This document shows, in pieces, positions 12,118-31,474 of a DNA stretch of 64,000 nt (position 1 is the first letter of the stretch; the number at the start of each line of letters is the position of its first letter). The notes beneath the pieces were generated by a model, which ran no database searches, was not told the DNA's origin, and worked only from the letters and a program-made list of their open reading frames with translations. The stretch comes from a virus (taxonomy: Duplodnaviria > Heunggongvirae > Uroviricota > Caudoviricetes). The position numbers and the translations under genes are program-made. The stretch is taken from the IMG/VR virus record IMGVR_UViG_3300028610_000968; one strand, 5' to 3'.

Positions 12118-12292
12118 TATCACTAAGCATAGGAGGAAAAAGTCATGCTAAGTGTCTTTGATTTAAAATGTTAATAATTGGATACAGTTTACTAGTCTTA
12201 ATCCTCGGATTGGCTTGGGGAATTTGGTTGCCTGAGAACGTTGCTATTGTTTTGATGGGATTAGCCTTTGCTATCTTGGGTGTAGGTATTCT

Positions 12293-16897: not shown

Positions 16898-17140
16898 ATG
16901 GGAGAGTATGTGGCACATCTATATAACGTGGGAATATTTCTTGTCATGTTAATGACCATACTTCTCTTAGTGCTTGTGTTGTTTTCACCTTTACTTACAC
17001 TAATGTATTTGAGTGATTCAAACCACAGGCTGTACTTAAAGATAATAATAGAAGTGACTGTGATAGTGGCAGTAATACTGTTAGTACCTTTGGGAATAAT
17101 AATGCTGGACTATCTAATGGAAATTAAGAGAGCAACTTAA
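16898..17140 (+). CDS. small membrane protein (80 aa)
   Basis: Two TM helices. Confidence 0.4.
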   Translation: MGEYVAHLYNVGIFLVMLMTILLLVLVLFSPLLTLMYLSDSNHRLYLKIIIEVTVIVAVILLVPLGIIMLDYLMEIKRAT

Positions 17141-17156
17141 ATACTGGAGATGAGTC

Positions 17157-17549
17157 ATGGGTGCATACGATAAAAGATGTTCTATATGTGGAAAAGATAT
17201 GAGCACGTGGGATAAAATGGGGCTACCGTGTCCGTACTGTACTGCGATAAGAGACCGCAAGAGAGCAAAACAAGAAGCTACTCCCCAAGATAATCAAAAA
17301 GCAACAGAGAGGGCGAGGCACAAAGCATACGTTGACGCAAAATTTAAGGAGATATGGGAATACAAGGGCGAACCACCAGATGGTGAAAAATGTGCTTTCC
17401 CTGACATACTAGGGTCGTTCACTGATGCGTACTTTGCTCACCTAAGAGAAAACGGCTTAACACAAGAGACATCACCCAAGTTTGAGGTAGAGTGGAGTCA
17501 TAGTATAGGGAACGCGCAAAACCCATACAAAAAAAGAAGGCGGGTATAA
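17157..17549 (+). CDS. hypothetical Zn-ribbon protein (130 aa)
   Basis: N-terminal CSICG...CPYC. Confidence 0.45.
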   Translation: MGAYDKRCSICGKDMSTWDKMGLPCPYCTAIRDRKRAKQEATPQDNQKATERARHKAYVDAKFKEIWEYKGEPPDGEKCAFPDILGSFTDAYFAHLRENGLTQETSPKFEVEWSHSIGNAQNPYKKRRRV

Positions 17550-17681
17550 GATGTTCCTATGTGAGAAGTGCCATGAAAAAAGCAAGTGTGAGTTCATACA
17601 TTTTTCTACTTCCTATGGGCCATGTGAAGCCTGTCATACAGTGGGAGAAACCTGCGATTGTAAACCGAAAGAAGGCGAAAC

Positions 17682-17912
17682 ATGATTGTCGATAAAATAT
17701 TAATGACTAAAGCACAAGTAGCTTTATTGTGGCGAGTAACAAACTCCTTGCTTGACGCTAGGATTGCTATCAGTGAATTAAGCAGTGAGTTAGAAAGACC
17801 GAACCCAATACTCAGTATTATGGACGAACAGATAACTGTGGCATTAAAACTAAACTTCCATTTGAAGGATGCTTACAGTCCAGCACTGAACCCGAAAGTG
17901 GAGGACAAATAA
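17682..17912 (+). CDS. hypothetical protein (76 aa)
   Basis: ORF track entry. Confidence 0.35.
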   Translation: MIVDKILMTKAQVALLWRVTNSLLDARIAISELSSELERPNPILSIMDEQITVALKLNFHLKDAYSPALNPKVEDK

Positions 17913-18107
17913 TGTTAAATGATTGGTCAAAAGGATTTTGGACTGGCACTATACTAGTAAATGTTGTATGGGTGCTAATGATGTATTTCGGCACACGGCA
18001 ATAAGGAGCAGAGTAATGGTCACTTGGTGGTTCATGCCAAAGCAAGAGTAAAAAATTATTTATACTTCAAAGTTAATTTAAAAACAAACAAACGAGGGAG
18101 TAAAATA

Positions 18108-18986
18108 ATGAACAAACATATTGAACCTACTAGGTTAATCATGTTCTTAGAATTAGTAAAGGGGTGCAAAAACGCCGAGTGCCCTTCATTTGGTACTGTG
18201 TGCAAACAAACGGAGCAACGGTATATGTCTCTGTCCACCCTACTAGATATTGCAAAAGAAGTAAAATCTGCCCTGAAGGAAAAAGAACCAAAATTTGAAG
18301 TCGTTGATTTGTGGACATACGGAAACGGGGATACGTTCGACCACCCCGCATTTCAAGAGATGCTGCAAGTGGTCAGACTTCTGTTCCCGGATTTCAAACT
18401 GTCAATGGCGATAGACTCGAGGCGTGATTGTCCCGAGGGCGATTGGTGGCAGTACTTAGACAAAGTAAAAATGATTCACAAGCTACCAGAAACGTTTGAC
18501 TGGCTTGAAAGAGCTAGGTACTGGGCGCATAGAGTGCCGATTGATATGAGCCATAAGCTTATTACAAATCACCTTTCGAGTTCCATGTGGAAAACGTGGA
18601 AAAAAGTAGTTTGGGTTAAAGAGCTAAAAGCGGTTCCTTGGCACAACATTGAACTAGGGACGGATAAGCCAGTATTCACGCAAAGAGAAACGTTTACGTG
18701 CGACTCTGACATACCCGTTGAGAACGGCCCATATCCGGGCAGACCTGTACGCAGAGCTTTAATTCGACACAATGGCAAACCAAGAAGATGTTTGGTGTCA
18801 CCGACTAGTCATAAGACAATTACAAAACTGTTGCTCGGCGGGGATGATGTATGTCCTGAGTGCTGGCCTTTGACTGGCAGTGAACTAGCAAAGTTCTATG
18901 AAGATAAAATAGTCATAACACCATCGTCTAACTGTGTGTCTGATGGGTACTTCACACCAACATGGGAAGAAAACGTGTTGATCTAA
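18108..18986 (+). CDS. hypothetical protein (about 292 aa)
   Basis: Start trimmed to the ATG at 18108 after GAGGGAG. Confidence 0.5.
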   Translation: MNKHIEPTRLIMFLELVKGCKNAECPSFGTVCKQTEQRYMSLSTLLDIAKEVKSALKEKEPKFEVVDLWTYGNGDTFDHPAFQEMLQVVRLLFPDFKLSMAIDSRRDCPEGDWWQYLDKVKMIHKLPETFDWLERARYWAHRVPIDMSHKLITNHLSSSMWKTWKKVVWVKELKAVPWHNIELGTDKPVFTQRETFTCDSDIPVENGPYPGRPVRRALIRHNGKPRRCLVSPTSHKTITKLLLGGDDVCPECWPLTGSELAKFYEDKIVITPSSNCVSDGYFTPTWEENVLI

Positions 18987-18987
18987 A

Positions 18988-19410
18988 ATGGCAACTAAAT
19001 ACGACCCCACGTACCCAATAATTAAAGAGTTAAGGCAATTGGGTGTTACAAAGTATGAAATCAACTTTACGGCCAAAAGACCTATTGTAAAGATAGATGG
19101 TATTTCGGTGGTTAAAATCCCCTGCCATACTTGTGGAGGAAGAGGATATTACCACCTTGATTTGCCCAACCCTAACGTGCCTTTTGATATGGACATTGGT
19201 GGTGGGCTGGGTGATGAAGTTCGATGTTCTTGCGGTGGCAGTAAGGTTTATGTGCCAACTGACATAACTCGCGATAGGGTACTAAAGGTTAGGGACAAAC
19301 GACCAAAATACAAGTACCGATATTTGTATGAAGATTATTGGGGCTACATTCATCCTAGTATTTGGAAACGTATTAGGTCGCAGATAACTCAAGCCAAGAA
19401 TGAATTGTGA
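18988..19410 (+). CDS. DnaJ-type CxxCxGxG zinc-finger protein (140 aa)
   Basis: CHTCGGRGYY and CSCGGSKV. Confidence 0.45.
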   Translation: MATKYDPTYPIIKELRQLGVTKYEINFTAKRPIVKIDGISVVKIPCHTCGGRGYYHLDLPNPNVPFDMDIGGGLGDEVRCSCGGSKVYVPTDITRDRVLKVRDKRPKYKYRYLYEDYWGYIHPSIWKRIRSQITQAKNEL

Positions 19411-19799
19411 TTAATCCAGAGAGCGGGGGAAAACAATGATAGGTATAGGAGGTTATCGTAGTGAATGGGAGTTCCCATTAGCAGTGGGGGCAATAATCCT
19501 GTTTGGTATTGTAATACCTTGGTTTATCTTACCAAGATTTTTAGGTTAAACGAACAGAAACAATTGAATAATGCTTTATAAAAAAGTCCTGGGAATTTTC
19601 CTGGGATTTTTTTGTTGATTGGCTGGGAAAAAAGGTTGTTATATAAGAGATGTTCCTAGGGCGGCAGCCGCGCTGCCGTCTCTACAATTAGTGCAATAAC
19701 CCCCGCCTGCTTGTTAGTATCATCCCAGGTCAGCGCCTTGCGTCTGTACTCTTGGTGGAGGGAGGTACATAAAAAATGTTTAGCGTGGTCGGTATATAG

Positions 19800-19915
19800 T
19801 GCCTGTACAGGGTATAATTATAAATACATAGCAAGGCGAACCTTGAAAACTAAATAGTATAAGGTGGTGAAAGTCTAGGTAAGTGCTGTATAGCGTGCCT
19901 TGCTATAATGTAAAC
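19800..19915 (+). promoter_or_regulatory. promoter cluster upstream of the 19934 gene (TATAAT-type -10 elements near 19826 and 19904; 18-mer GCCTGTACAGGGTATAAT)
   Basis: TGcTATAAT extended -10 at about 19902-19909. The 18-mer recurs at 20703-20721. Confidence 0.4.
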
Positions 19916-19933
19916 CTAATAAGGTGGTTTCAA

Positions 19934-20587
19934 ATGGCACAAGAACAAAAGACAAAAGCCGCTGCTAAGGCCGAATTGGAAGCGGCACAAGCGGAACGCA
20001 AGACGGAACTTGACGCGCTTGGTGAACTTGACCAATTGGAAGCTATGCAAACTGTACAGGGTATGTGGGTTGAATTGAATGACCTTGACCAGGTTGCTGC
20101 TAGTGACCAAAAGCGGGAAGTGAAAACGTTGATCGACGCAATTGTGGCCGACCAGCGGGAAGCATTGGAAGCACAAGCGGAAAAAATTGTCGCTAAGAAA
20201 AGCGAAACCGCACGCGCCGAAATTATGGAACGTGTAGAAGCGGTTGAAAATGGCGAAAACATCCTAAACTTATTCGCCAAGCAAGCCGAAACGTTGAAAG
20301 AAAAAAAGCGGTCGGGTGGCAAGGGTGGTTCGCGCGGTGGTGCAAAAGTTACAGCGCCAGACGGTACAGAATTCGATAAGGCGAACGGTTCCAAAAAAGT
20401 CGAATTAAAAGTGGTCGGCGGAAAATTGCATACACGTTCCGAAACCGTATGCCGTGACGCAACCATCCCAGCGGGTGAAGGAATTAGCTTCACTAATATT
20501 ACTACAGCGTTGGGACGTTCCGACAGTCCAGCCGTGACGCAAGAAATACATGACTATCTTGCTAACCTTGACAGTGACGACAGCTAA
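19934..20587 (+). CDS. Ala/Glu-rich coiled-coil protein with a Gly/Arg/Lys-rich segment (about 217 aa); possible nucleoid-associated protein
   Basis: ATG at 19934 after AGGTGG. The N-terminal 130 aa are heptad-like AEL/AQA repeats, followed by GGKGGSRGGAKV. GC content is noticeably higher than the flanks. Confidence 0.5.
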   Translation: MAQEQKTKAAAKAELEAAQAERKTELDALGELDQLEAMQTVQGMWVELNDLDQVAASDQKREVKTLIDAIVADQREALEAQAEKIVAKKSETARAEIMERVEAVENGENILNLFAKQAETLKEKKRSGGKGGSRGGAKVTAPDGTEFDKANGSKKVELKVVGGKLHTRSETVCRDATIPAGEGISFTNITTALGRSDSPAVTQEIHDYLANLDSDDS

Positions 20588-20691
20588 CTTAGCAGCGGCA
20601 CATGGTAGACCGGGTGAAAGCCCGGTCTATTCGTGGTTGCTCCCATCCCATCCCTTTAACACGTTACTACGCTAAAGACACCGCTTGCTTG

Positions 20692-20721
20692 TTGGTATTG
20701 TGCGCCTGTATAGGGTATAAT
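20692..20721 (+). promoter_or_regulatory. sigma-A-like promoter (TTGGTA, 18-bp spacer, TATAAT) carrying the conserved 18-mer GCCTGTATAGGGTATAAT
   Basis: See the matching element at 19814-19831. Confidence 0.4.
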
Positions 20722-20770
20722 ATAGGTATATGGCTACGCGGGATACTGGACAGACGGGAGGGAGGGAGAC

Positions 20771-20923
20771 ATGATAGTATCTACAGGAAGGCTCGGGGAT
20801 AGACTGTGCGAACTATGCGGCTATACACACAACAAAGACGGACAGCTCAAGGAGACACAAATATCCGTTAATGCGCTTTCAGCTAAGATGAATGTGTGCA
20901 AAGATGGATGTGACAACAATTAG
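20771..20923 (+). CDS. small Zn-ribbon protein (50 aa), absent from the ORF track
   Basis: The ATG follows GGGAGGGAGGGAGAC. Motifs CELCG...CKDGC. The stop TAG is the first three nt of repeat R1. Confidence 0.45.
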   Translation: MIVSTGRLGDRLCELCGYTHNKDGQLKETQISVNALSAKMNVCKDGCDNN

Positions 20924-20970
20924 ACTTTGCTAGAACCTCTGGGAGACTAGGGGTTCCAGGGAAAGCCCAA
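20921..20970 (+). repeat. structured intergenic repeat R1 (TAGACTTTG, hairpin, GGAAAGCCCAA), a diverged copy
   Basis: Family consensus TAGACTTTG-YT-[stem]-[loop]-[stem']-TCTARGGARAGCCTAA. Here the stem is GAACC/GGTTC. Confidence 0.6.
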
Positions 20971-20992
20971 TAACTCAATGGGAGGGATACAA

Positions 20993-21319
20993 ATGGCAGA
21001 ACGTGTTGTATTGCGACTAGATAAAGCACCAAGGGAGATTCGAAACTGGAGAGCTACGGAAAGACGGTGGGAGACCTCTACTGGTGAGATCATCAATTCC
21101 ATTACGGAATATCCGTTAGAGCCTCGTGAGGTTTACCTAGGGAGCTTTGACTATCAAACACTGGTTGACCCGGATAACGAACTTGACTTCATTCGAGTAT
21201 TGAAGAACTTTAGAGCCATGTACGAACTGGATGGTGGCGAACTAATAAAGCTATTCAAGCGGAGTGGAGTTTTGTGCTGTCCGGCCCAATTCTATAGTAA
21301 GAGCAATTGCGTGTTTTGA
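20993..21319 (+). CDS. hypothetical protein (about 108 aa)
   Basis: ATG after GGGAGGGATACAA. Confidence 0.45.
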   Translation: MAERVVLRLDKAPREIRNWRATERRWETSTGEIINSITEYPLEPREVYLGSFDYQTLVDPDNELDFIRVLKNFRAMYELDGGELIKLFKRSGVLCCPAQFYSKSNCVF

Positions 21320-21368
21320 TGCTAGTACGTAGGCCGAGGACTATGTATCTGAACTGGGAAGATAGGAG

Positions 21369-21614
21369 GTGGAACAAATGTTTACAGCAGACGGAGTAAC
21401 AGAACGGTTTGGTTACAATAGTGACATTATTGAAAGCACTGATAAAGAATTTGACTATCAAACGCCCTGGTACAAGCAGCTGGGAGCTAATACAACCATT
21501 CAAGAGATGGTCATTTTCATGAAGGACAGAGCCAACCAAGAGCCTTACCCACAAGACGAGTTAGTAGGTGACTTGGAACTAATAGAAGTGCTCACTCGTG
21601 AAGTCCTCAAGTGA
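21369..21614 (+). CDS. hypothetical protein (81 aa)
   Basis: RBS GGAGGTGGAACAAATG. Confidence 0.45.
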   Translation: MEQMFTADGVTERFGYNSDIIESTDKEFDYQTPWYKQLGANTTIQEMVIFMKDRANQEPYPQDELVGDLELIEVLTREVLK

Positions 21615-21620
21615 CGGAGA

Positions 21621-21668
21621 CAGACTTTGTTAGAGTATCCTATAGACGGGTATTCTAAGGAAAGCCTG
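21621..21668 (+). repeat. structured intergenic repeat R2
   Basis: CAGACTTTGTTAGAGTATCC...GGTATTCTAAGGAAAGCCTGG. Confidence 0.6.
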
Positions 21669-21867
21669 GTCAAGACAGGTAAATATATAAGAGGTGCTTG
21701 TTATAATTGTAAGAAACTTGATATTAGTGGCAGTATATGTTGTTGCTGTCCTATATGGCTATTACTCTCTATGGGTATTCTTATGTCTATAGAGTATCCT
21801 TCGAGGAATAGGAAAGAATGGTCGGGGTTTGTTATTCATTCCCCCGCCCTTGGGAGGTATTAGAAGA

Positions 21868-21984
21868 ATGAAGCAACTATGGAGTGAGCTTGGTATAGTT
21901 GGTAAGGTTGGGCTGACAATGTTCTTGGTCGGTGCTTCCTTAAATATTATATTAAAGCTCTCTTACGTTATTGAAGGGAGGTGA
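21868..21984 (+). CDS. small hydrophobic peptide (38 aa)
   Basis: RBS GGGAGGTATTAGAAGAATG. Product MKQLWSELGIVGKVGLTMFLVGASLNIILKLSYVIEGR. Confidence 0.35.
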   Translation: MKQLWSELGIVGKVGLTMFLVGASLNIILKLSYVIEGR

Positions 21985-21989
21985 ACAGA

Positions 21990-22220
21990 ATGTCATTACA
22001 ATTAAAGCATCCAGGTGACAAAGCAGGTTATCCAGCTACAGCTAGGACATATATCTCAGACAATGGTTACAGACGTATTGAGGTACATAGTGGTTTTGGT
22101 TCTGGCAGCATCACTGTCACTGGTGACGAGACTCCCTGGTGCTATATGTTTGACAACCAAGGCCAGTATCAAGAGCTAGTAGCTTATATCGACGGCTTGT
22201 GTAACTGGTCTGAGGTATGA
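21990..22220 (+). CDS. hypothetical protein (76 aa)
   Basis: RBS GGGAGGTGAACAGAATG. Confidence 0.5.
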   Translation: MSLQLKHPGDKAGYPATARTYISDNGYRRIEVHSGFGSGSITVTGDETPWCYMFDNQGQYQELVAYIDGLCNWSEV

Positions 22221-22250
22221 ACATTATCTTATTGAAAGGAGGTGACAAAC

Positions 22251-22724
22251 ATGAAATGTGAAACTTGCAAAAAGTTTAAGATATGTGTGACCAGAGGAAC
22301 AGTTACAGCCGATACTAATGCCCCAAATAAATGTTACGAAGCTTTTTACAATGGCTACGAGCTTTCAGACAGAACGGAGAAGGGTGACGCTTACAAGTTG
22401 ATGACTCCCTTTGACGATGACGACAAGCTAGAGTCTGCTATTTGTGTGATTGAGTCTTCCATGATGTTATTACACACACTTAACATGACTTGCTCTGAAC
22501 TTGAGGCTGGTAGTTTGAATGGTAGCCTCGGGATGGTTATTGTTAACATTCAACGAGCCTTGGAAGTTCTTAGCTTGGCTGCGGGAGATTTGAAGGGTTG
22601 TGTTGATGACCCTAACTTCTGGACAAGTGAAAAGCTCAGTCCTATTGGTAGAGAGATGATGGGCTTGGGTGACAACGAGGCTATACAAGCTGAAATTGAA
22701 CGGTTACAAGGGATGTTGAAGTAG
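22251..22724 (+). CDS. hypothetical protein (157 aa) with N-terminal CxxC
   Basis: RBS AGGAGGTGACAAACATG. The stop TAG is embedded in R3. Confidence 0.5.
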   Translation: MKCETCKKFKICVTRGTVTADTNAPNKCYEAFYNGYELSDRTEKGDAYKLMTPFDDDDKLESAICVIESSMMLLHTLNMTCSELEAGSLNGSLGMVIVNIQRALEVLSLAAGDLKGCVDDPNFWTSEKLSPIGREMMGLGDNEAIQAEIERLQGMLK

Positions 22725-22800
22725 ACTTTGCTTGAACGCTCAGGCTATTGCCGGTAGTATAGCACGAAAGCAGGCTTGAGCGTTCTAGGGAAAGCCTAAC
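22722..22800 (+). repeat. structured intergenic repeat R3
   Basis: TAGACTTTGCTTGAACGCTCAGGC...GCTTGAGCGTTCTAGGGAAAGCCTAA. The stem sequence differs from the other copies but remains complementary. Confidence 0.65.
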
Positions 22801-22821
22801 AGTTGAAAGGTGGTGAATGAA

Positions 22822-23529
22822 ATGGATATAGAAGTACAAGATAAAGTAAAGAAGATACTTGCTTTATCGTATGGCACTGACTTTGTTGGTGAAGCTGAAG
22901 CAGCATTACTCAAAGCACAAACCATGCTGAAAGGGATAGGGCTGACAGTTGAGGAATTCGAGCGTCACACTGAAACTGAACAGTCCTTAGCGGCTCTTGA
23001 CGAGATATATGACACTACATCGGGAAAACGTAGTAACTTATATCTCTCCTTGATGGCTGTCATATCTAGTAACTTCAGGTGCATGGAATACTCGATAAGA
23101 AATAAGCATACCAAAGAGGTTCAAGCACGTTTGATAGGTAACAAGGAAGATATTGAGCTTTGTTTGATGGTTTACAAGGCTGCGGTCAAGTCAATGGAGC
23201 ATTTAGCCGACCGCTACTTACACAACCTAAGAGTTAATAGTTCCCCATTGTTGTCAAACTCTCCATCTAAACTGAAGAAGTCCTTTATGTGGGGATTCTC
23301 AAGCGGTTTGAACCAAAAGTTCGAGGAACAGAAAGCTGCTAACTCTTGGGAATTGGTGCTGGCTACTCCGAAAAATGTGACCGACAAAGCAATTGAGCTT
23401 AGACTAGTTTCTGCTCAGAAGTCACAGGCTAGGTTAAGCGGAGAGGCACATGAAAGCGGCTCTGAGGCTGGTAGGGACTGGAGCCATGCTGATGCTAACA
23501 ATGCTAGGGGCAAAGCCTTAGAAAGCTAG
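22822..23529 (+). CDS. DUF2786-family protein (about 235 aa)
   Basis: The N-terminus DKVKKILALSYGTDFVGEAEAALLKAQTML matches the DUF2786 signature (KIxKLLALAxxxxNxxEAxxAxxKAQxLM). Confidence 0.55.
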   Translation: MDIEVQDKVKKILALSYGTDFVGEAEAALLKAQTMLKGIGLTVEEFERHTETEQSLAALDEIYDTTSGKRSNLYLSLMAVISSNFRCMEYSIRNKHTKEVQARLIGNKEDIELCLMVYKAAVKSMEHLADRYLHNLRVNSSPLLSNSPSKLKKSFMWGFSSGLNQKFEEQKAANSWELVLATPKNVTDKAIELRLVSAQKSQARLSGEAHESGSEAGRDWSHADANNARGKALES

Positions 23530-23545
23530 ATGGGAGGTATTGAAA

Positions 23546-23671
23546 ATGCCGGATGAAGAAAACCAGTGTACGTGTGGTGGGTTTATCCATCCCATAACTG
23601 GGAAATGTAAAGAATGTGGTTCAATTGGGCCTTGGTTTCCAACAGATGAACCAGGTATTTTAGAGAGTTAG
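23546..23671 (+). CDS. small Zn-ribbon protein (41 aa), absent from the ORF track
   Basis: MPDEENQCTCGGFIHPITGKCKECGSIG... with RBS GGGAGGTATTGAAAATG. Its stop TAG is embedded in R4. Confidence 0.4.
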   Translation: MPDEENQCTCGGFIHPITGKCKECGSIGPWFPTDEPGILES

Positions 23672-23733
23672 ACTTTGCTTGAGCGCCCAGGTGAATTTCG
23701 CCGGACAGTCTGGGCGCTCTAGGGAAAGCCTAT
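23669..23733 (+). repeat. structured intergenic repeat R4
   Basis: TAGACTTTGCTTGAGCGCCCAGG-loop-CTGGGCGCTCTAGGGAAAGCCTAT, a perfect 10-bp stem. Confidence 0.65.
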
Positions 23734-23752
23734 ACACGATGGGAGGTGAGGA

Positions 23753-24019
23753 ATGAAAATTAGATTTGCTGTTGGTAGGAGGGCAATGCAAGATATTGTT
23801 ATGCGACGAGATGTTGCATTGCGGGCGGGAGACAGTGTTGAATCGGCAGTAGAAAATGTTGCCCATGTTGCTCTACATTTCAACGTAGACGAGATGGTAG
23901 AACGATGTAAGAAAGGTAACGTTGACATCAATGATGGCTTTATAATAATTGAAGCAGAGTTGAGGCAACACCACACAGTAGGAGGTGAAGAGAACAATGC
24001 GCTTGGAAGAAAAGAATGA
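23753..24019 (+). CDS. hypothetical protein (88 aa)
   Basis: RBS GGGAGGTGAGGAATG. Confidence 0.45.
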   Translation: MKIRFAVGRRAMQDIVMRRDVALRAGDSVESAVENVAHVALHFNVDEMVERCKKGNVDINDGFIIIEAELRQHHTVGGEENNALGRKE

Positions 24020-24059
24020 TATTTATGACCACGAAGCACAAGAGAAGGAGCCTAAGTCT

Positions 24060-24161
24060 ATGTCCCTTATAGTCCTAGGTTTCGGTGGGTTTGCTTGGTT
24101 CTACCTGTTACTCTGGGTAGGACTCAACGCGGAACTTATAAAAGATACATTGCACATTTAG
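24060..24161 (+). CDS. small membrane peptide (33 aa), absent from the ORF track
   Basis: MSLIVLGFGGFAWFYLLLWVGLNAELIKDTLHI with RBS AGAAGGAG. Its stop TAG is embedded in R5. Confidence 0.35.
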   Translation: MSLIVLGFGGFAWFYLLLWVGLNAELIKDTLHI

Positions 24162-24222
24162 ACTTTGTTAGAGTAGATAGGGTTTGATTCGGAGGACTCT
24201 ATCTGCTCTAAGGAAAGCCTAA
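24159..24222 (+). repeat. structured intergenic repeat R5
   Basis: TAGACTTTGTTAGAGTAGATAGG...CTATCTGCTCTAAGGAAAGCCTAA. Confidence 0.65.
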
Positions 24223-24241
24223 TATAATGGAGGTGAACAAG

Positions 24242-24544
24242 ATGGCATTGGTATGTATGTACTGTGGGACTCCGGTAGCGGATAACCTAAAAGCAGGTCT
24301 TGATATATGTCCTTGTAGAGCAAGGGTACTGGAGAATCTAGAGAAAGCTACTTCTGGGCTAACCAGTGAAAATAAAGTAATACTCTTAAATAGAAGATAT
24401 GAGGACTCTAGTTTCCAGTTGTTTTTGTCTGAGTTACTGACCGTATTCCGAAGGGCTCTTGTCGCTGAAGCTCTGGAATGTCCACCCGAAACCGACGCTC
24501 AACGAAAAGCTTGGTTATCGTGGAGAGATGTAACAAGGCTATGA
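24242..24544 (+). CDS. hypothetical Zn-ribbon protein (about 100 aa)
   Basis: RBS GGAGGTGAACAAGATG. N-terminal CMYCG...CPC. Confidence 0.45.
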   Translation: MALVCMYCGTPVADNLKAGLDICPCRARVLENLEKATSGLTSENKVILLNRRYEDSSFQLFLSELLTVFRRALVAEALECPPETDAQRKAWLSWRDVTRL

Positions 24545-24574
24545 ATAAACTTCACTTGGAAGGTGGTGATAAAG

Positions 24575-24907
24575 ATGCAAGAACATGAAACAAACATAGT
24601 ACATAATATTGCACCAAGGATTCTCTTTGAGAAAGATTGGCGCACACACATGTACGAACTCGACGCGAGAATGAACAAAAGCAACAGTTCTCCATCGCGA
24701 GTTTTACTGGACATCGCTCTCAAAGGGCTTGGCGACGAGATAGTTGTCCTTTGCTATCTGCCTGAGACTGGTACTAAAGGTGAGAGGTATGCCACATGGG
24801 TTTGTAGGAACGACGGCAAACTCATCACTACTAGCGGTAATTACTTCAGACATGACGACAGAAAAGGAGCTGAAGAGAACTTCGTTACGAGGCAAGACCG
24901 TAGATAA
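24575..24907 (+). CDS. hypothetical protein (about 110 aa)
   Basis: RBS GGAAGGTGGTGATAAAGATG. Confidence 0.45.
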   Translation: MQEHETNIVHNIAPRILFEKDWRTHMYELDARMNKSNSSPSRVLLDIALKGLGDEIVVLCYLPETGTKGERYATWVCRNDGKLITTSGNYFRHDDRKGAEENFVTRQDRR

Positions 24908-24979
24908 CAGACTTTGTTAGAGTGTCTAGTGACAGCGACGATGGGCTATCGGTCACTAGGCGCTCTAAGGAAAGCCTAT
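24908..24979 (+). repeat. structured intergenic repeat R6
   Basis: CAGACTTTGTTAGAGTGTCTAGTGAC...GTCACTAGGCGCTCTAAGGAAAGCCTAT. Confidence 0.65.
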
Positions 24980-24997
24980 AAATAAGGGAGGGGTACA

Positions 24998-25192
24998 GTG
25001 GAAGATGATGAACTAGCAAGTACAGAGCATAAGTGTGTGTGGTATGTGAGTTCGGCAGATGTAGTAACATCAACAGAAGATGTTACCGTCACTATCGCGT
25101 GTCATAGATGTGATGAGACAAAAACAGTTGCTTTCGATACTGACCTTATGGTAAATATGGCACTAATCTTTGATAGAAAAGGATTAAACTAA
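24998..25192 (+). CDS. hypothetical acidic protein (64 aa)
   Basis: GTG start after AGGGAGGGG. Confidence 0.4.
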   Translation: MEDDELASTEHKCVWYVSSADVVTSTEDVTVTIACHRCDETKTVAFDTDLMVNMALIFDRKGLN

Positions 25193-25449
25193 TGAGTAGA
25201 AGAAGACATGGATTAGGTGTGCGCGTACCAACATCTAAAGATATTCTGCACACTGCTAAGATAAGAAAAGAGAGCCAAACATTCAGCACTATTATGAGAT
25301 ATAAAGTGTTGGGAGAAGAAGACCAAAGCTCTGCAATAAGAAGGGCTTTTGTGGATGGCTACAATGAGCATAGAAAAGCTCTTAGTTTCTTGACTAATGC
25401 CGAGTTGGATTACTTAGAGAAATGGGAACACACAATAAGGACAAGTTGA
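25192..25449 (+). CDS. hypothetical basic protein (85 aa)
   Basis: ATGA overlap with the upstream gene. Confidence 0.45.
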   Translation: MSRRRHGLGVRVPTSKDILHTAKIRKESQTFSTIMRYKVLGEEDQSSAIRRAFVDGYNEHRKALSFLTNAELDYLEKWEHTIRTS

Positions 25450-25465
25450 GAGGGAGGTGAACAAG

Positions 25466-25747
25466 ATGTTTCCACCCAAAGAGTTCATAAGAGAAGATGG
25501 GGGCATGGACGTACTGGGATTTGCTGAACATATTGTACAAAAAACAGCAGATATCTGTGCAGAAATGCCTCTGGAACTTGAGAAGTATGAAGCCGAGGCA
25601 GCATTGGTGATGATTACTTGTCTCAAAGAATTGGAGATAACTCTAAGGATTATTGGCCATCAAGGTATGGCTAAGTCTGTCCACACAACATATGTGGAGT
25701 TTGAACTCCTAGTCATGCAGAGGATACCAAAAGAAATGGTAAACTAA
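25466..25747 (+). CDS. hypothetical protein (about 93 aa)
   Basis: RBS GGGAGGTGAACAAGATG. Confidence 0.45.
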   Translation: MFPPKEFIREDGGMDVLGFAEHIVQKTADICAEMPLELEKYEAEAALVMITCLKELEITLRIIGHQGMAKSVHTTYVEFELLVMQRIPKEMVN

Positions 25748-25765
25748 TGGAAAGAGGTGAGCAGA

Positions 25766-25948
25766 ATGGCATTTGAATCACAACTCAAAAAATATCAAGT
25801 ACTAGTCTATTATGGTAGCTCAATAGATAATGAAGAAGTGGAGGCTGAGAACGAACAAAAAGCCCTACACTTAGCTTACGTTGAGCTTGACTACACAGAT
25901 TACTTCAAGCAAAATGTAATCGAAAAGGTCGAGATAACTTTAATTTAA
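25766..25948 (+). CDS. hypothetical protein (about 60 aa)
   Basis: RBS AGAGGTGAGCAGAATG. Confidence 0.4.
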   Translation: MAFESQLKKYQVLVYYGSSIDNEEVEAENEQKALHLAYVELDYTDYFKQNVIEKVEITLI

Positions 25949-25949
25949 T

Positions 25950-26062
25950 TAGACTTTGTTAGAGCGCCTAGTGGAGAGGATGTCAACTAGGGATTACTTA
26001 GGTGTGGGAGAGTAGGGTTTGAATCCCTGCGGTATCCACCAGGCGTTCTAAGGAGAGCCTAA
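25950..26062 (+). repeat. structured intergenic repeat R7 (extended, about 113 nt)
   Basis: It shares the first 26 nt with R8 (TAGACTTTGTTAGAGCGCCTAGTGG). The extended loop contains AGGGTTTGAATCCCT, a T-arm-like mini-hairpin. Confidence 0.6.
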
Positions 26063-26080
26063 TACAAGGAGGTGAACAGA

Positions 26081-26404
26081 ATGATGGATTTTATAAAGTT
26101 AGACCAAGAAGAGGTACGTGCTCTTTTTAGGACAAGTGAAAACCAATCAGATATTGTACTAGCTTTGTACAAGATGGTATACCCTGATTGGGATGACATT
26201 AAATCTATTGAGGGTTATCCAACGATAAACCCAAAGACCAATGAAGAGATTTTCGGTATGTTTCGCATATTTGATAGGAACCATTGTCCCGACCAATCAA
26301 TCCTACGAGGTGCGTTGTGGTTCAATAAAGGGTTCTCTACTCTCAAGGGCAGTGATGTCCCAGAGTGGACAGTTGACCCAACCACAGCTCAAGTGAACTA
26401 TTAG
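26081..26404 (+). CDS. hypothetical protein (about 107 aa)
   Basis: RBS AGGAGGTGAACAGAATG. The stop TAG is embedded in R8. Confidence 0.45.
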   Translation: MMDFIKLDQEEVRALFRTSENQSDIVLALYKMVYPDWDDIKSIEGYPTINPKTNEEIFGMFRIFDRNHCPDQSILRGALWFNKGFSTLKGSDVPEWTVDPTTAQVNY

Positions 26405-26475
26405 ACTTTGTTAGAGCGCCTAGTGGTGTAGAGTTCCCCTCTCATTTACGCTAGGCGTTCTAAGGAAAGCCTAAG
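26402..26475 (+). repeat. structured intergenic repeat R8
   Basis: TAGACTTTGTTAGAGCGCCTAGTGG...CGCTAGGCGTTCTAAGGAAAGCCTAA. Confidence 0.65.
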
Positions 26476-26492
26476 ATGTGGAGGCACGACAA

Positions 26493-26792
26493 ATGGGATA
26501 TTATGTTGACCCAGAAACTGAAGAAAAAGAGGACTTTTTGGAGCGTGAAGGCCAAAAGGTAGACTCTGGTGATATACCTTGGGATGAAGTTCCTAATGGT
26601 ATGTTTCCAGTGATACTGGTAGAAAATCCAACATTCACAGCAGCTGTTATCTGTACTACAGATAAAGAGTTTCAGTACTTTTTACGCACTCCCGGAGACC
26701 CAAGACCAAAGACTCTATACCTTGTGGGCAAACGGGAGTTGTTAGCAGCATCAAATCAACTGTTTTTGAGAGACTTTGCAACATCACAGTGA
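26493..26792 (+). CDS. hypothetical protein (about 99 aa)
   Basis: ATG after GTGGAGGCACGACAA. Confidence 0.45.
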   Translation: MGYYVDPETEEKEDFLEREGQKVDSGDIPWDEVPNGMFPVILVENPTFTAAVICTTDKEFQYFLRTPGDPRPKTLYLVGKRELLAASNQLFLRDFATSQ

Positions 26793-26807
26793 AGGAGGTG
26801 AAATAAC

Positions 26808-27026
26808 GTGGCTAATTCATTAGATGCTGACCTCATGGGCAAGCACGTGATAGTACATGGGAGAACGGTTCTCGCAGTAAATGGTTTCGGGTCTTTTAGT
26901 TTTACTGTGGGTCGAGGACTATTCATCGAAGATGCGGATGGAGCCAACCATAGCATTTCTGGCTTTGATGTTGAACGATTTGCAAACGCTGGAGAAGTTG
27001 CTAATTTTAAGGAGATGCAAACATGA
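26808..27026 (+). CDS. hypothetical protein (72 aa)
   Basis: GTG start after GAAGGAGGTGAAATAAC. Confidence 0.4.
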   Translation: MANSLDADLMGKHVIVHGRTVLAVNGFGSFSFTVGRGLFIEDADGANHSISGFDVERFANAGEVANFKEMQT

Positions 27027-27205
27027 GCTACGAACAAATTATGGGGAGAGGGAAAAGGAGACCAGTGGAGAAGCTGTATTGTCCGTCTGGGCATCCAGTA
27101 CGTCTCAGAACACATGAGGACAGCACAGTGAAACCTGGATACTTTGCTGAGTGTTTGATATGCGAAGAAGACTATTACTTGTCTCAGTTGACAGCGGGTA
27201 AATAA
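27023..27205 (+). CDS. Zn-ribbon protein (60 aa)
   Basis: CPSGH...CLICEEDY. Confidence 0.4.
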   Translation: MSYEQIMGRGKRRPVEKLYCPSGHPVRLRTHEDSTVKPGYFAECLICEEDYYLSQLTAGK

Positions 27206-27239
27206 GTGTTTGAATATAAGATTGAGGAGGTGATTGAGA

Positions 27240-27422
27240 GTGAGCATGAAAATGGGCAGTTGGTGGGTAAGAAGCATAAAAGATAAAAGATGGGATGGTA
27301 CTGGCAAAGACATTGTTGGAGGTTTTGGAATACCACCGAAAGCTCAAGCTCACGTTGACAAGATCGAAAAGGAGCTTGGAGAAAAACCAGATGATCTTGA
27401 GTTCGGGTACATGAAAGATTAG
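27240..27422 (+). CDS. hypothetical protein (about 60 aa)
   Basis: GTG after GAGGAGGTGATTGAGA. The stop TAG is embedded in R9. Confidence 0.35.
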   Translation: MSMKMGSWWVRSIKDKRWDGTGKDIVGGFGIPPKAQAHVDKIEKELGEKPDDLEFGYMKD

Positions 27423-27490
27423 ACTTTGTTAGAGCCGGTAATGCCCCATCGCAAAGTTGTGGTACTTACCGGCTCTAAGGAGAGCCTAAT
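27420..27490 (+). repeat. structured intergenic repeat R9
   Basis: TAGACTTTGTTAGAGCCGGTAA-loop-TTACCGGCTCTAAGGAGAGCCTAA, a perfect 12-bp stem. Confidence 0.65.
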
Positions 27491-27515
27491 GCTCCAGAAA
27501 GGAGGTGTTGCCTGC

Positions 27516-27698
27516 ATGGGTAGAGAGGTGAAGCGATACGAAATGGAAGTATCTTTAACCATACATATATTTGCTGAGAGTGAAGAGCTAGCTAGGGACA
27601 AAGCTGCTGACTTAGAGTTCCCTAATTATGTGGGAGATACATTCGATATTAATCACGTAGTCGAAAATGAAATTGAAGATGGAGACGACAGAGAATAG
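27516..27698 (+). CDS. hypothetical protein (about 60 aa)
   Basis: RBS AAAGGAGGTGTTGCCTGCATG. The track ORF 27426-27698 begins inside R9. Confidence 0.4.
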   Translation: MGREVKRYEMEVSLTIHIFAESEELARDKAADLEFPNYVGDTFDINHVVENEIEDGDDRE

Positions 27699-27721
27699 AG
27701 TGCTCTTGGCGGCTTTCCGCT

Positions 27722-27778
27722 TGCTTGGTTAAGTGCCTGGTCACGGGGGTTGCTTGCGTTTTACGGTTATGCTATAAT
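27722..27778 (+). promoter_or_regulatory. sigma-A-like promoter P3 (TTGCTT, 17-bp spacer, TGcTATAAT) with a variant of the conserved upstream element (GCTTGGTTAAGTGCCTGGTCACGG)
   Basis: Extended -10 and a -35-like hexamer. The upstream element is similar to P1 and P2. Confidence 0.45.
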
Positions 27779-28006
27779 AAGGGAGCTAAGAAATTAACAG
27801 AATAGTATATAATTTGAGGAGAGAGGCTCTGCGAAGAGCGGCTAGACTAAACACGAGGATTAACGCAGTATGCCACTGCGCCCTCCCTGTGTGGAAGCTA
27901 GACGTTCTACGGAGAGTATTATAATGGTAGTAATCGTAGTCTTTGTACTTATAATGATAGCAGCAGCAGTAAATATCACATTCACTCTCGCCTCAGGTGA
28001 TGCTGA

Positions 28007-28360
28007 GTGAGAATTTTAGTATGCGGTAGCAGATGGTGGACTAGTAGAAGCGCCATTATGCGAGAATTAAGCAAGTTCGATATGAAAACCACCACGATAA
28101 TTGAAGGTGAAGCTCAAGGCGCTGATTTGATTGCTAGAGATGTTGGCAGCAAGTTAGGTTTCGACATAGAGCCTTATCCTGCCAATTGGACTAGGTATCG
28201 CCTGGGAGCTGGCCCAGTTAGAAACTCCAAGATGTTAACACAGGGCTATCCAGATTTAGTGTTAGCTTTTCACGAGAACATTGAGAAGAGCAAAGGCACT
28301 AAGGACATGATAGCCAAAGCCGAGAAAGCTGGAGTTGAAGTGAGGTTGTTTAGTGATTAA
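28007..28360 (+). CDS. SLOG-superfamily (DprA/LOG-like, DUF2493-type) Rossmann-fold protein
   Basis: MRILVCGSR...IIEGEAQGADLIARDVG... matches the small phage SLOG-domain proteins (GSR, G-x-G-x-D). Confidence 0.45.
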   Translation: MRILVCGSRWWTSRSAIMRELSKFDMKTTTIIEGEAQGADLIARDVGSKLGFDIEPYPANWTRYRLGAGPVRNSKMLTQGYPDLVLAFHENIEKSKGTKDMIAKAEKAGVEVRLFSD

Positions 28361-28529
28361 AATACCCAACCCAATTAAAATAACAAGAACTGGACTCACA
28401 CTCACAATAGGTTTTGCTTTTCTCTGTCCTGCGGCGTTTTGTGCCGGTGTCTACTCCATATCTATACTGAGTGGATTAATGTGTGTGTTTATTTTGTACA
28501 TAGAAATTACAATACAATGAGGTTATTCA

Positions 28530-30689
28530 GTGCCTAGCTCTGTGCTATTAGAAAAGTCCTTACTATATCTAGACAGTAAATGTGATGGAGCTGTCGATGA
28601 AGATGGCGTAGGCTTTAATGGCACAGACTCTCGCTTTGGCAAGTCACTAGCTGAACAAATAGGAGAAGGAGACACTCTATCAAATAGACAGCTCATAGCT
28701 GCTTATAGTATGATAGGGAAATATAGACGACAGCTAGAATCCGCAGGGATTGTTGCTTCAGAACTCACCGCAGAGAGACAGATAGCACTAGCAACGATTG
28801 AATTAGAGAAACCTGATACCAAAACCACAGGTACAATAAACCTCTCACGGGATGTTATGTCAGGTAATGACTATATAATAGTAAGATTTGAGTATGACAA
28901 TCTCCTTGTCCAGAAAATGCAGCCTCTGAAGAAGTCTATTGGAGCTTACTTCAGGAAGATAGATGGTGACAAGTTCTGGGTTATAAAAATAGAGTACTAT
29001 GCAACAATTGTTGAAAGGTTCCCAGACTTTGATATATCTCTTGAACTTAGTGATTATGCAAAGGCTCGTGGCCTAGATACAAAACCTATACCTAAAGAGC
29101 TGAAGCTAGTACCAACAGAAGAAATAGAAGATACAAATGCAGTAATACTTGAGCCTAAACCAGCACCAGTGGTGAAAGTTGATACTCACAAGGCTCCAGA
29201 AACCGCTAAATTAGATATGCAACAAATAACAATAGGAGAAGAGGAAGAAGAAGAAGCTAAAAAGCCTGAAGTAATAGCAAAACCTTTCCTCACTATTGGA
29301 GAACCAGCAAAACTAGCTCTTGAACTACGTCCGTTTCAAAACCACGGAGTGTCTTTTGTAGAACAAGTTGATGGTCGAGCTATAATAGCAGACGAGATGG
29401 GGCTTGGTAAGACTCCTCAAGGTATTGCATTTGTAGTTAAGCACGAATTTAGAGCTTTAGTGGTCTGCCCCGCCTCACTCAAAAGAAACTGGGAGCTTGA
29501 AATAAACAAGTTTTCTCCAGACAGTACAACAAATATACTAGATAGCTCAGATACTGACTACTACAAAGACTTCACTATCATCAATTATGACATTCTTGAT
29601 AACCATGTGGAGAATATACAAGGGTTATATGAGTTGGGAGTTGGCTTTGACGTACTTATATTAGATGAAGGACATTATATAAAGAACACAAAGACCAAGA
29701 GAACTCAAGCAGTGTTGGAGCTAGACTGTGTGCCTAGAAAGATAATACTCACTGGCACACCACTATTAAATAGACCAGCAGAGTTATTCCCACTGTTGAG
29801 ATTCATCAATCCTTGGAAATGGGATAATTTTGCTGAGTTCAAAAGGAAATTTTGTTCTGGTGGCATGACTTCATCCGGGTGGGATGGGAATGGTGCTTCC
29901 AATCTACAAGAACTACATGAATTATTACAAGACACTATGATTAGACGTAAGAAATCAGAAGTGTTACCAGAGTTACCAGACAAACAAATAACAGACATTA
30001 TGGTTGAGTTATCGCATGACACTAGGATAACCTACAATAGAATATTCGATAACTATATAGAATTTCTAAGAGAACAAGAACGATATGCTGAAGCCAAAAG
30101 AGCTGGAAATGCAGAGCATTTAGTTAAGATTCAAGCACTAAAACAGCTATGTTCTGCGGATAAACTGAAGTCTGCTAAAGAGTTCATAGACACTGCTTTA
30201 GAGCAGAACGGAGACTCCGGTAAAATACTAGTATTCTCTCAATACAAAGATGTGGTTAAGGACATCTATGAAGAGTACGGTAGCAAAGTTGTTAAAATCA
30301 CTGGCGAGAGTAGTTCATCACAAAGACAAAACGCAGTAGAGGAATTTCAAAATAACGATGAAGTTAAGATTCTTGTTGGTACTATAAAAGCAGCTGGGGT
30401 CGGGTTCACATTAACTCAAGCAGATAAAGTTCTATTCATTGATTTAGCTTGGACTCCCAGTGACCACGACCAAGCCGAGGATAGAGCGCACAGAATCGGT
30501 CAGAAAGAAGCATTAAATGTATACTATCTAATAGCAGATGAAACAATAGACCAGAAAATTAAAGGTATATTGGGTTCAAAAAGAAAGGTTATCAATCAAG
30601 TAATAGATGGCTCAACAGACGAAACTATAACAGACACATCAACTCTCAATGAGCTAACATCACAATTGAAGAGAGAGTATGCAATATGA
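28530..30689 (+). CDS. SNF2-family (Swi2/Snf2, RapA/HepA-like) ATPase/helicase with an N-terminal extension of about 270 aa
   Basis: Walker A ADEMGLGKTPQGIAF, DEGH box at LILDEGHYIKN, helicase-C motifs including QAEDRAHRIGQ. The first 270 aa have no recognisable motif. Confidence 0.8.
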   Translation: MPSSVLLEKSLLYLDSKCDGAVDEDGVGFNGTDSRFGKSLAEQIGEGDTLSNRQLIAAYSMIGKYRRQLESAGIVASELTAERQIALATIELEKPDTKTTGTINLSRDVMSGNDYIIVRFEYDNLLVQKMQPLKKSIGAYFRKIDGDKFWVIKIEYYATIVERFPDFDISLELSDYAKARGLDTKPIPKELKLVPTEEIEDTNAVILEPKPAPVVKVDTHKAPETAKLDMQQITIGEEEEEEAKKPEVIAKPFLTIGEPAKLALELRPFQNHGVSFVEQVDGRAIIADEMGLGKTPQGIAFVVKHEFRALVVCPASLKRNWELEINKFSPDSTTNILDSSDTDYYKDFTIINYDILDNHVENIQGLYELGVGFDVLILDEGHYIKNTKTKRTQAVLELDCVPRKIILTGTPLLNRPAELFPLLRFINPWKWDNFAEFKRKFCSGGMTSSGWDGNGASNLQELHELLQDTMIRRKKSEVLPELPDKQITDIMVELSHDTRITYNRIFDNYIEFLREQERYAEAKRAGNAEHLVKIQALKQLCSADKLKSAKEFIDTALEQNGDSGKILVFSQYKDVVKDIYEEYGSKVVKITGESSSSQRQNAVEEFQNNDEVKILVGTIKAAGVGFTLTQADKVLFIDLAWTPSDHDQAEDRAHRIGQKEALNVYYLIADETIDQKIKGILGSKRKVINQVIDGSTDETITDTSTLNELTSQLKREYAI

Positions 30690-30820
30690 AACTAACCCTT
30701 GTAGATAAATTAATTGTAGCTCTTGCTGTCATTGTAGCGTTTGCTATCTATTATCTTATATTCCTGGTGGTAGGATAATTACCTGTAATCCTCTTATGAG
30801 GTTGACGTAAGGAGTTTATT

Positions 30821-31087
30821 ATGGCGAAAAGAGGCCCACAACCGGGTACTCCACAAGCAAAGCGGGGAGGGGAGACAGTCAAGGAAAAGTACGGCCCTGA
30901 GTTCTATAAAAAGATAGGCAAAAAGGGTGGCGATGCTGTCAAAAAGAAGTATGGTGCTAGTTTCTACGAAGAGATTGGTAAAAAAGGCGGTGAATCTACC
31001 AAAGCAAAGCATGGCCTCGAATTCTATGAGAGAATAGGCAAAAAAGGAGGCCGCAGGAGCACAGAGGAAGGAGATGAAAAAACTTGA
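30821..31087 (+). CDS. GsiB/YciG-like KGG-repeat stress protein (hydrophilin), copy/segment 1
   Basis: Three tandem 20-aa repeats KYGPEFYKKIGKKGG, KYGASFYEEIGKKGG and KHGLEFYERIGKKGG, as in Bacillus GsiB (HDKEFYQEIGQKGGEAT). Confidence 0.6.
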   Translation: MAKRGPQPGTPQAKRGGETVKEKYGPEFYKKIGKKGGDAVKKKYGASFYEEIGKKGGESTKAKHGLEFYERIGKKGGRRSTEEGDEKT

Positions 31088-31107
31088 GTGACAGTGAAAA
31101 AGGTAAA

Positions 31108-31344
31108 ATGACGGTTGGTGCTGCTGGAAGTAAAGGTGGCAAAAGCACCATGAAGAAGTACGGCCCAGGATTCTATGAAGAGATAGGCAAAAAGGGCGGT
31201 ACTGAAACATCTCGAAAGTATGGGCGAGAGTTCTATCAGGAGATTGGCCACAGGGGAGGCCAGAAAGTGAAGAAGCTCATTGAGGCAGGCAAAAAAGCCG
31301 AAGCGGAGGCGGCAGGCAAGGGAACCGAAGAAGAAGAACTATAA
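31108..31344 (+). CDS. GsiB/YciG-like KGG-repeat protein, copy/segment 2
   Basis: Repeats KYGPGFYEEIGKKGG and KYGREFYQEIGHRGG. It is in a different frame from 30821-31087, and the two frames meet at an A6 run (31077-31082). This could be one frameshifted gene or two tandem genes. Confidence 0.5.
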   Translation: MTVGAAGSKGGKSTMKKYGPGFYEEIGKKGGTETSRKYGREFYQEIGHRGGQKVKKLIEAGKKAEAEAAGKGTEEEEL

Positions 31345-31390
31345 GATATTGTCGGGAAACCGACAGTAGAGCCAGGAATGGCTCTACTTT

Positions 31391-31474
31391 GGGCGAGTGG
31401 TGGAACTGGTATACACAACGGACTTAAAATCCGTCGCCTTAACCGGATTGGGGGTTCGAATCCCCCCTTGCCTA
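31391..31474 (+). tRNA. tRNA-Leu(TAA): tRNA-Leu (anticodon TAA), type II with a long variable arm
   Basis: Hand-folded. Acceptor GGGCGAG/CTTGCCT has two G-U pairs. Anticodon stem ACGGA/TCCGT with loop CTTAAAA. Variable arm of 16 nt. T-arm GGGGG-TTCGAAT-CCCCC. Confidence 0.6.

Follow-up and report, generated by a model that had tools for sequence, protein, structure and literature searches.

Covarying hairpins in a small-gene array of an uncultivated phage as candidate ribonuclease III-type processing sites of early messenger RNA

Phage SPO1 is a close relative of SP82, and the hairpins at which the early messenger RNAs (mRNAs) of these phages are processed were reportedly described by Panganiban and Whiteley in 1983 and by Mitra and Bechhofer in 1994 (as cited in PMC4838370 and PMC1935012). 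Here we compare these hairpins, and the processing sites of phage T7, with nine copies of a structured repeat (R1 to R9) lying between the small genes of an array in a 64,000-nucleotide stretch of phage DNA, IMG/VR record IMGVR_UViG_3300028610_000968, the whole of which is referred to as the window. The window belongs to a metagenomic contig of 129,023 bp (ENA ERZ27251120, k141_3673617; window position = contig position − 37,878), and the survey covered 81 of the 129 kb, contig positions 28974–110252, made up of the window with 8.9 kb upstream and 8.4 kb downstream of it.

The early RNAs of SP82 contain hairpins with internal loops that are cut once, in the downstream arm, by the ribonuclease III (RNase III) of Bacillus subtilis (PMC1935012, PMC4838370). 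A sequence resembling a ribosome-binding site contributes to the stability of SP82 mRNA (PMC7509114, citing Hue et al. 1995), and RNase III sites are reported in the terminal redundancy of SPO1 (PMC3896407, citing Stewart et al. 1998). Substrates of RNase III typically span two helical turns, and internal loops limit the cutting to one phosphodiester, with a 3′ hairpin on the product that resists 3′–5′ exonucleases (PMC1540722). In T7 an early precursor of about 7,000 nt is cut in five places by RNase III, giving mono- and dicistronic mRNAs (PMC4858673).

The nine units all lie on the + strand within positions 20920–27489, and exact matches to the motifs AGACTTTGYT and CTARGGARAGCC on that strand occur at just these nine sites in the 64-kb window. 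A covariance model built from the alignment of the nine, and searched with its filters off, returns exactly nine + strand hits scoring 54.5–75.5 bits (expectation values, E, of 1e-13 to 5e-20), with the best unrelated match in the 81 kb at 13.3 bits and a palindromic echo of the units on the − strand at 18–31 bits. No copies are found by the model in the 8.9 kb before and the 8.4 kb after the window, and since 81 of the 129 kb have thus been scanned without copies elsewhere, the family appears confined to one operon. A preliminary description, made from the letters of the window, had located nine units here and proposed building such a model from them and scanning with it; the positions of all nine are borne out by the exact matches and by the model. 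The range that it gave the array does hold the nine units, together with a decayed relic, but leaves outside a divergent hairpin, R10, that lies further to the right.

Each unit forms a single interrupted helix of 20–30 positions, as the conserved flanks pair with each other; the earlier picture, a hairpin of 10–16 bp with conserved flanks outside the stem, has to be revised in this respect. The layout is 5′-UUAG|A|CUUU|G|YUAGAG-variable stem...loop...variable stem-CUCUAR|GG|ARAG|C|CUAA-3′. In the lower stem UUAG pairs with CUAA and CUUU with ARAG (with a U·G pair in R7 and R9), and in nine of nine units A faces C in an invariant mismatch and G faces GG in an invariant bubble, above which the upper stem continues for 13–20 further pairs. 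With at least 20 helical positions, every copy reaches the two helical turns of RNase III substrates (PMC1540722), and the mismatch and bubble supply all nine with the internal loops of RNase III sites. The effect that these irregularities may have on cleavage is extrapolated from PMC1540722 and PMC1935012.

The variable stem had been described as preserving its base pairs, and the alignment bears this out: 94.7% of 188 cells are standard pairs, 10 of 21 pairs have changed on both sides, and none of 500 shuffles reaches the observed values. As a control, sliding one partner by 1–3 columns lowers the pairing to 28–59%. The sequence itself is unevenly conserved, with 21 invariant columns concentrated in the lower stem and bubble, and seven pairs that never vary, all of them in the lower stem or among the first upper-stem pairs; the distal upper stems are unrelated between non-neighbouring copies. 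This combination of invariant lower pairs and diverged upper stems indicates selection on structure throughout and on sequence in the lower half. Fold energies range from −18 to −44 kcal/mol, and the + strand folds better than the − strand in eight of the nine units (sums of −276 and −240 kcal/mol, respectively). Helix positions include 17 G·U cells and 4 A·C cells, an excess that is expected if RNA of the + strand is the selected molecule.

All nine units are intergenic. They occupy nine of the 21 junctions between the 22 genes of the array (g1 to g22) and split it into ten segments of 1–4 genes. The stop codon of the upstream gene, TAG (UAG in the RNA), is the first triplet of the unit in six cases (after g1, g6, g8, g10, g17 and g21), as had been noticed earlier, and in the remaining three the upstream stop lies about 0–8 nt before the helix. 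The next start codon follows the helix, measured from its 3′ end, by 18–25 nt in eight of nine, the exception being R2 (199 nt). The preliminary description had included a stereotyped ribosome-binding site after each unit; it is the distance from hairpin to start codon that is fixed, and the site itself, GGAGGTGA, equally strong at junctions without a hairpin, does not belong to the repeat. The units are not followed by U-tracts, their 3′ flanks reading CCUAAUA or CCUAUAA, and a terminator scan gives no terminator-like site at any of them, in agreement with the early remark that they lack T-tracts and are not intrinsic terminators. Similarly, none of the 41 promoter-like sites in positions 17000–32000 lies within a unit. 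The promoter-like sites that bound the array, and the lack of terminators inside it, suggest that the units are intercistronic in a single polycistronic transcript.

Comparison with SPO1 was made by folding the intergenic regions of its genome record (FJ230960, 132.5 kb) and then building and running a covariance model. A family of six hairpins emerges, all in the host-takeover module (the first 13 kb) and none elsewhere in the 132.5 kb, with the consensus (UAG)GUUGCUAG - 10-bp covarying stem - YAUGGAGCCUAU. The pairing is 93.3%, both partners have changed in 8 of 18 pairs, and most of the hairpins are followed by a second conserved motif, GGCUACUAA. Both families are confined to a module of small early genes (six of six in the first 13 kb of SPO1, and about 7 kb in the array), directly follow a stop codon, which as UAG falls within the 5′ base of the helix (three of five in SPO1, six of nine in the array), combine an invariant lower stem and internal loop with a covarying upper stem, are followed by strong ribosome-binding sites, and share the strings UUGYUAG (5′ strand) and GGA..GCCUA (3′ strand). 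They differ in that the lower stem of the array is two pairs longer and has the A·C mismatch, its bubble is smaller (G/GG versus about 4/5 nt), its upper stems are longer (13–20 versus 10 bp), and the SPO1 3′ flank GGCUACUAA is missing. We regard the similarity between the two families as suggestive.

The array would also resemble T7 in having an early polycistronic precursor of about 7 kb that is split at intercistronic hairpins of about two turns (PMC4858673, PMC1540722, PMC1935012). T7 has five early sites versus the nine or ten of the array, its host is Gram-negative, and similarity in sequence would not be expected. We know of no T7 RNase III site in which an embedded stop codon has been noted as a feature.

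The explanation that we favour, and hold to be fairly probable, is that the units belong to an early polycistronic phage mRNA, in which they serve as sites of RNase III-type processing and stabilisation; we infer that one transcript spans them, that the enzyme is RNase III, and the position of the cut. A transcript of about 7 kb, polycistronic and probably early, would run from a promoter near 20700 to about 27700, and the RNase III of the host, which is probably Gram-positive, would bind the helix and cut it, most likely at a single point of the 3′ arm, either at the bubble or beside it, dividing the precursor into mono- to tetracistronic mRNAs. The upstream piece would carry at its end, immediately behind a stop codon, a stable hairpin as a block to 3′ exonucleases, and the downstream piece would start with the purine-rich leader GGARAGCCUAA, followed about 10 nt later by a strong ribosome-binding site; to judge from SP82, such an arrangement can protect a new 5′ end. 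Processing and stabilising would thus be one mechanism, since a single cut at the bubble leaves a protective 3′ hairpin (PMC1540722). The two had been named among several candidates in the preliminary description, and both fit the anatomy of the units and the two phage precedents, T7 and SP82. So understood, the array is a further example of the T7 and SPO1/SP82 strategy, and neither a new class of element nor a new mechanism.

Several points weigh against this explanation. The cleavage and the spanning transcript are both deduced from sequence, and a unit is present at just nine of the 21 junctions. Read on the − strand, the invariant A·C mismatch becomes a G·U pair, which leaves the strand argument to the upper stems. 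The invariant sequence of the lower stem is stricter than Escherichia coli RNase III is known to require (PMC1540722), and a sequence-specific protein could explain it equally well. No RNase III gene is seen in the surveyed parts of the contig, which is expected if the host enzyme does the cutting but does not count as support for it. That the six SPO1 hairpins are the mapped RNase III cleavage sites is itself something that we infer, and searches between the two families score weakly: the array model matches four of the six SPO1 hairpins at 8.5–14 bits, and the SPO1 model run on the window finds R2 at 11.8 bits (rank 1) and R1 at 10.3 bits (rank 5), with E of about 0.4–0.9. With scores this weak, homology between the array and SPO1 families is not established.

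The conservation of the lower half favours a different reader of the same RNA. The 21 invariant columns concentrated in the lower stem and bubble, the seven fixed pairs and the fully diverged upper stem point to selection on sequence and not on pairing alone, as would be the case were the units sites for a sequence-specific RNA-binding protein or a nuclease other than RNase III. Such a protein, for instance a phage regulator or a Cas6-like endoribonuclease, would recognise the lower stem together with its A·C mismatch and the G/GG bubble, and thereby control how neighbouring cistrons are translated or how stable they are. We think this unlikely: neither the array proteins nor the surveyed 81 kb yield an RNA-binding or nuclease domain, and the SPO1 family has the same pattern of conservation, while the hairpins of its relative SP82 are cut by the host RNase III (PMC1935012). 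Slightly less likely again is that the hairpins are never cut and serve passively, either by halting 3′ exonucleases once random decay has set in or by uncoupling, as insulators, the translation of neighbouring genes. Their stability (−18 to −44 kcal/mol) and position right after stop codons would suit either role, and a distant phage locus, L018 (see below), has a different short GC hairpin at a similar position; however, a barrier needs no invariant sequence, no conserved mismatch or bubble and no two helical turns, and short GC hairpins suffice. Partial terminators or attenuators, giving a gradient of expression along the operon, would have the strong stems, the orientation and the location after genes that are seen here, but we consider them very improbable, as the stems are followed by an A-rich 3′ flank (CCUAAUA...) and not a U-tract, the terminator scan is empty at the units, and with nine terminators in series after one or two promoters the distal genes would be silenced.

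The preliminary description also raised the possibility that the units are DNA modules for recombination, by which small genes are swapped between phages, like the attC sites of integrons or the PeSL elements of T4-type phages. PeSL denotes an early promoter plus a stem-loop, and attC sites have the consensus boxes R″/L″ and L′/R′, RYYYAAC ... GTTRRRY. As with attC, the array has imperfect palindromes with conserved ends, conserved unpaired bases and a variable centre, placed directly after the 3′ ends of open reading frames (ORFs) and all pointing one way; as with PeSL, repeated regulatory units punctuate a region of small, diverse early genes. In addition, the neighbouring units are most alike (R7/R8, R3/R4, R2/R6), the relic beside R2 points to local duplication, and the genes between the units are unrelated orphans. 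Against this, there is no Phage_integrase domain or other tyrosine recombinase in the domain lists for the surveyed contig or among the scanned ORFs of the window, nor is there an attI site in the 81 kb; the units have no RYYYAAC/GTTRRRY box, their ends being UUAGACUUUG ... GGARAGCCUAA, and no promoter-like site lies in or at them. The segments hold several genes (1–4) each, the array proteins include no paralogs, the better-folding strand is the coding strand, in eight of nine units, and the spacing to the start codons is fixed, the last two of which point to mRNA. The sole other assembly is 100% identical, and no presence/absence variation is known. We therefore set the proposal aside as quite improbable. 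On a more exotic reading, the same hairpins that serve in mRNA processing may double as recombination joints for swapping early genes.

Coordinates of the repeat units and associated features are collected in Table 1.

Table 1. Hairpins, genes and promoter-like sites of the array (positions in the window) and hairpins of SPO1 (positions in FJ230960). Scores are from the covariance model of R1–R9; fold energies are in kcal/mol.
Feature	Position	Strand	Score (bits)	Fold energy	Fold z	Remarks
Promoter-like site	20692–20721	+				Sigma-70-like, TTGGTA-18-TATAAT, 10/12 matches; likely start of array transcript
Genes g1–g22	20771–27698	+				22 small genes, 38–235 aa, all with strong Shine-Dalgarno sequence
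R1	20920–20970	+	62.7	−20		g1 stop TAG at 20921–20923
R2	21620–21669	+	54.5			Shortest unit; basal U-A pair swapped for C-G
Relic beside R2	21773–21822	+				Decayed; read from sequence and fold; missed by covariance model
R3	22721–22799	+	68.6	−33.6	−3.8	g6 TAG stop inside
R4	23668–23733	+	70.8	−31.1	−4.1	g8 TAG stop inside
R5	24158–24222	+	70.9	−29.7	−5.4	g10 TAG stop inside
R6	24907–24979	+	73.2	−32.8	−5.2	Abuts g12 TAA stop
R7	25949–26062	+	69	−43.9		Apical insert of ~60 nt with T-arm-like stem-loop
R8	26401–26474	+	75.5		−6.3	g17 TAG stop inside
R9	27419–27489	+	74	−33.5	−6.5	g21 TAG stop inside
Promoter-like site	27750–27778	+				TTGCTT-17-TATAAT with TG; next site, marks end of array unit
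R10	27826–27918	+	10.2	−41.9	−3.6	Probable divergent copy, in leader of next unit
SPO1 hairpins	5798–5863, 7107–7172, 11794–11859, 12216–12280, 12420–12487, 12717–12781					Not annotated in GenBank record

Single units have features of their own. The hairpin R10 is probably a divergent tenth member of the family; its score is low, and its arms align with those of R6–R8, with a lower stem that has changed in a compensatory way (ACUUUG/GGAAAGC to GCUCUG/GGAGAGU). Directly 3′ of R10 is a 28-aa hydrophobic ORF (MVVIVVFVLIMIAAAVNITFTLASGDAE, 27924–28010) whose sole Shine-Dalgarno-like run, GGAGAG, sits within the R10 3′ arm, so that its translation might depend on the hairpin being opened or cut. 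The relic repeats both arms of R2 (GGGTATTCT / AGAGTATCC) in swapped order, plus GGAAAG, and lies in the sole long gap of the array, the 199 nt that follow R2 (21669–21868). This gap also contains a possible extended −10 element (TGTTATAAT, 21700–21708). The 5′ arms of R7 and R8 are identical over 27 nt, with R3/R4 and R2/R6 also close, and this greater likeness of adjacent units suggests that the family spread locally. The apical insert of R7 (25975–26040) contains the T-arm-like stem-loop GUAGGG-UUUGAAU-CCCUGC, and then ...CCACCA; a tRNA is called here by ARAGORN at its 80% threshold only, with a poor cloverleaf, a comparable false call occurs elsewhere in the array, Rfam gives nothing, and the insert was rejected as a tRNA.

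Searches against known RNA families and repeats do not place the units elsewhere. At gathering threshold Rfam reports four tRNAs at 31–36 kb and nothing else in the window, and a permissive scan of positions 20500–28000 gives noise only. Dispersed bacterial repeats or miniature inverted-repeat transposable elements (REP, BOX, RUP, Correia) were considered and rejected, all copies sharing a single operon and orientation while their upper stems are unrelated. The string UUAGAGC prompted a comparison with repeats of clustered regularly interspaced short palindromic repeat (CRISPR) arrays and with mimicry of trans-activating CRISPR RNA, which has no Rfam support and is argued against by the variable upper stems. 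The units contain no tandem G·A pairs of the kink-turn type.

The array genes themselves give few clues. About 20 small genes including a DUF2786 protein had been described, and 22 are counted here; only g7 has a credible family match (DUF2786 + DUF7168, phrog_421, function unknown), with nothing credible for the other 21 in Pfam or PHROGs, and among 5.8 billion proteins g7 has no homologue except itself. Paired CxxC motifs occur in several of the proteins, and hydrophobic peptides are encoded by g4 and g10. No paralogs are found among the 22 (best E of 0.04 in an all-against-all BLASTP), so that the array did not grow by duplication of a gene plus its hairpin. Judged by their position, a role of these genes in host takeover is plausible but, like the anti-defence role that had also been suggested, conjectural. 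The gene caller of one assembly annotates a 185-aa ORF on the − strand at 26756–27313, across g19–g21, which is probably spurious because the + strand genes have strong ribosome-binding sites.

Other promoter-like and structured elements are present in and near the array. The element GT.GGTAT...GCCTGTA.AGGGTATAAT has two copies, at 19788–19818 and 20691–20721, which are 81% identical and 903 bp apart, suggesting a phage-specific family of early promoters. A possible internal promoter, the best match to the sigma-70 consensus in the region (TTGACA-16-AATAAT, 11/12, at 23922–23949), is located within g9 some 50 nt upstream of g10. Between the stop of a 234-aa gene, which it directly follows, and the array promoter is a strong hairpin (20594–20641, −31.6 kcal/mol, z of −5.3) that falls outside the family and lacks a clear U-tract; the preceding unit may end there.

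The contig is phage-like, encoding a family A DNA polymerase, an SNF2 helicase, NrdD, NAMPT, RecA and five tRNAs; the coding strand switches near 48 kb, and all genes in the array half of the window are on the + strand. The G+C content of the array is raised over that of its flanks, as had been remarked, but mildly so (0.415–0.456 versus roughly 0.35–0.42 elsewhere). The same phage encodes a protein with a Ku70/Ku80 beta-barrel domain (window 39601–40275, Pfam E of 1e-16). The phage is uncultivated and taxonomically isolated. Neither megablast of the region nor blastn of R8 against 50,697 phage records gives a match, a search of IMG/VR with the DNA polymerase (PolA) finds no relative, the best PolA match among GenBank phages has 35% identity, and the best homologue of the neighbouring helicase has 45%. 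Scans for the repeat pattern give no hits in IMG/VR and single hits in JGI metagenomes (nine) and GTDB genomes (one), which are chance matches since none folds into a hairpin. A second assembly (SRR5210996) is 100% identical over 20,288 bases, and thus offers no strain variation to exploit.

Four distant helicase-bearing phage loci (L018–L021) have no copy of the array hairpin family. The first of these, L018 (a Logan SRR8476429 contig, also JGI Ga0302251_1000085), is linked to the array phage by a 35%-identical SNF2 helicase alone, and has a short GC-rich hairpin repeat of its own (ACGGTCCCGGCATAACGCCGGGGCC) at 2764–2804, 2984–3024 and 3308–3348. This is a different family in a similar position, between stop codons and ribosome-binding sites in a region of small genes.

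If the units are indeed processed in the way that we favour, the strategy of T7 and SP82, in which one long takeover RNA is cut by host RNase III into stable, translatable pieces, reaches an uncultivated phage, and the hairpins provide a boundary map for 22 orphan early genes that are candidates for host takeover. The nine or ten natural variants, with their fixed lower stem and bubble and free upper stems, form a ready mutational series that bears on recognition by Gram-positive RNase III, or a partner, which is poorly defined so far. We suggest more tentatively, and think it doubtful, that the hairpins of the array and of SPO1/SP82 are either true homologues or convergent solutions to one sequence-specific recognition code, which may consist of a 5′-strand UUGYUAG and a 3′-strand GGA..GCCUA with the UAG stop in the base of the helix. 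Such a code would be shared across phages without detectable gene similarity, and the processing of early mRNA in phages of Gram-positive hosts would depend on conserved sequence that is recognised by RNase III or by a partner, for example a ribosome bound to the purine-rich 3′ arm; with nine natural variants at hand, this determinant would be open to direct testing.

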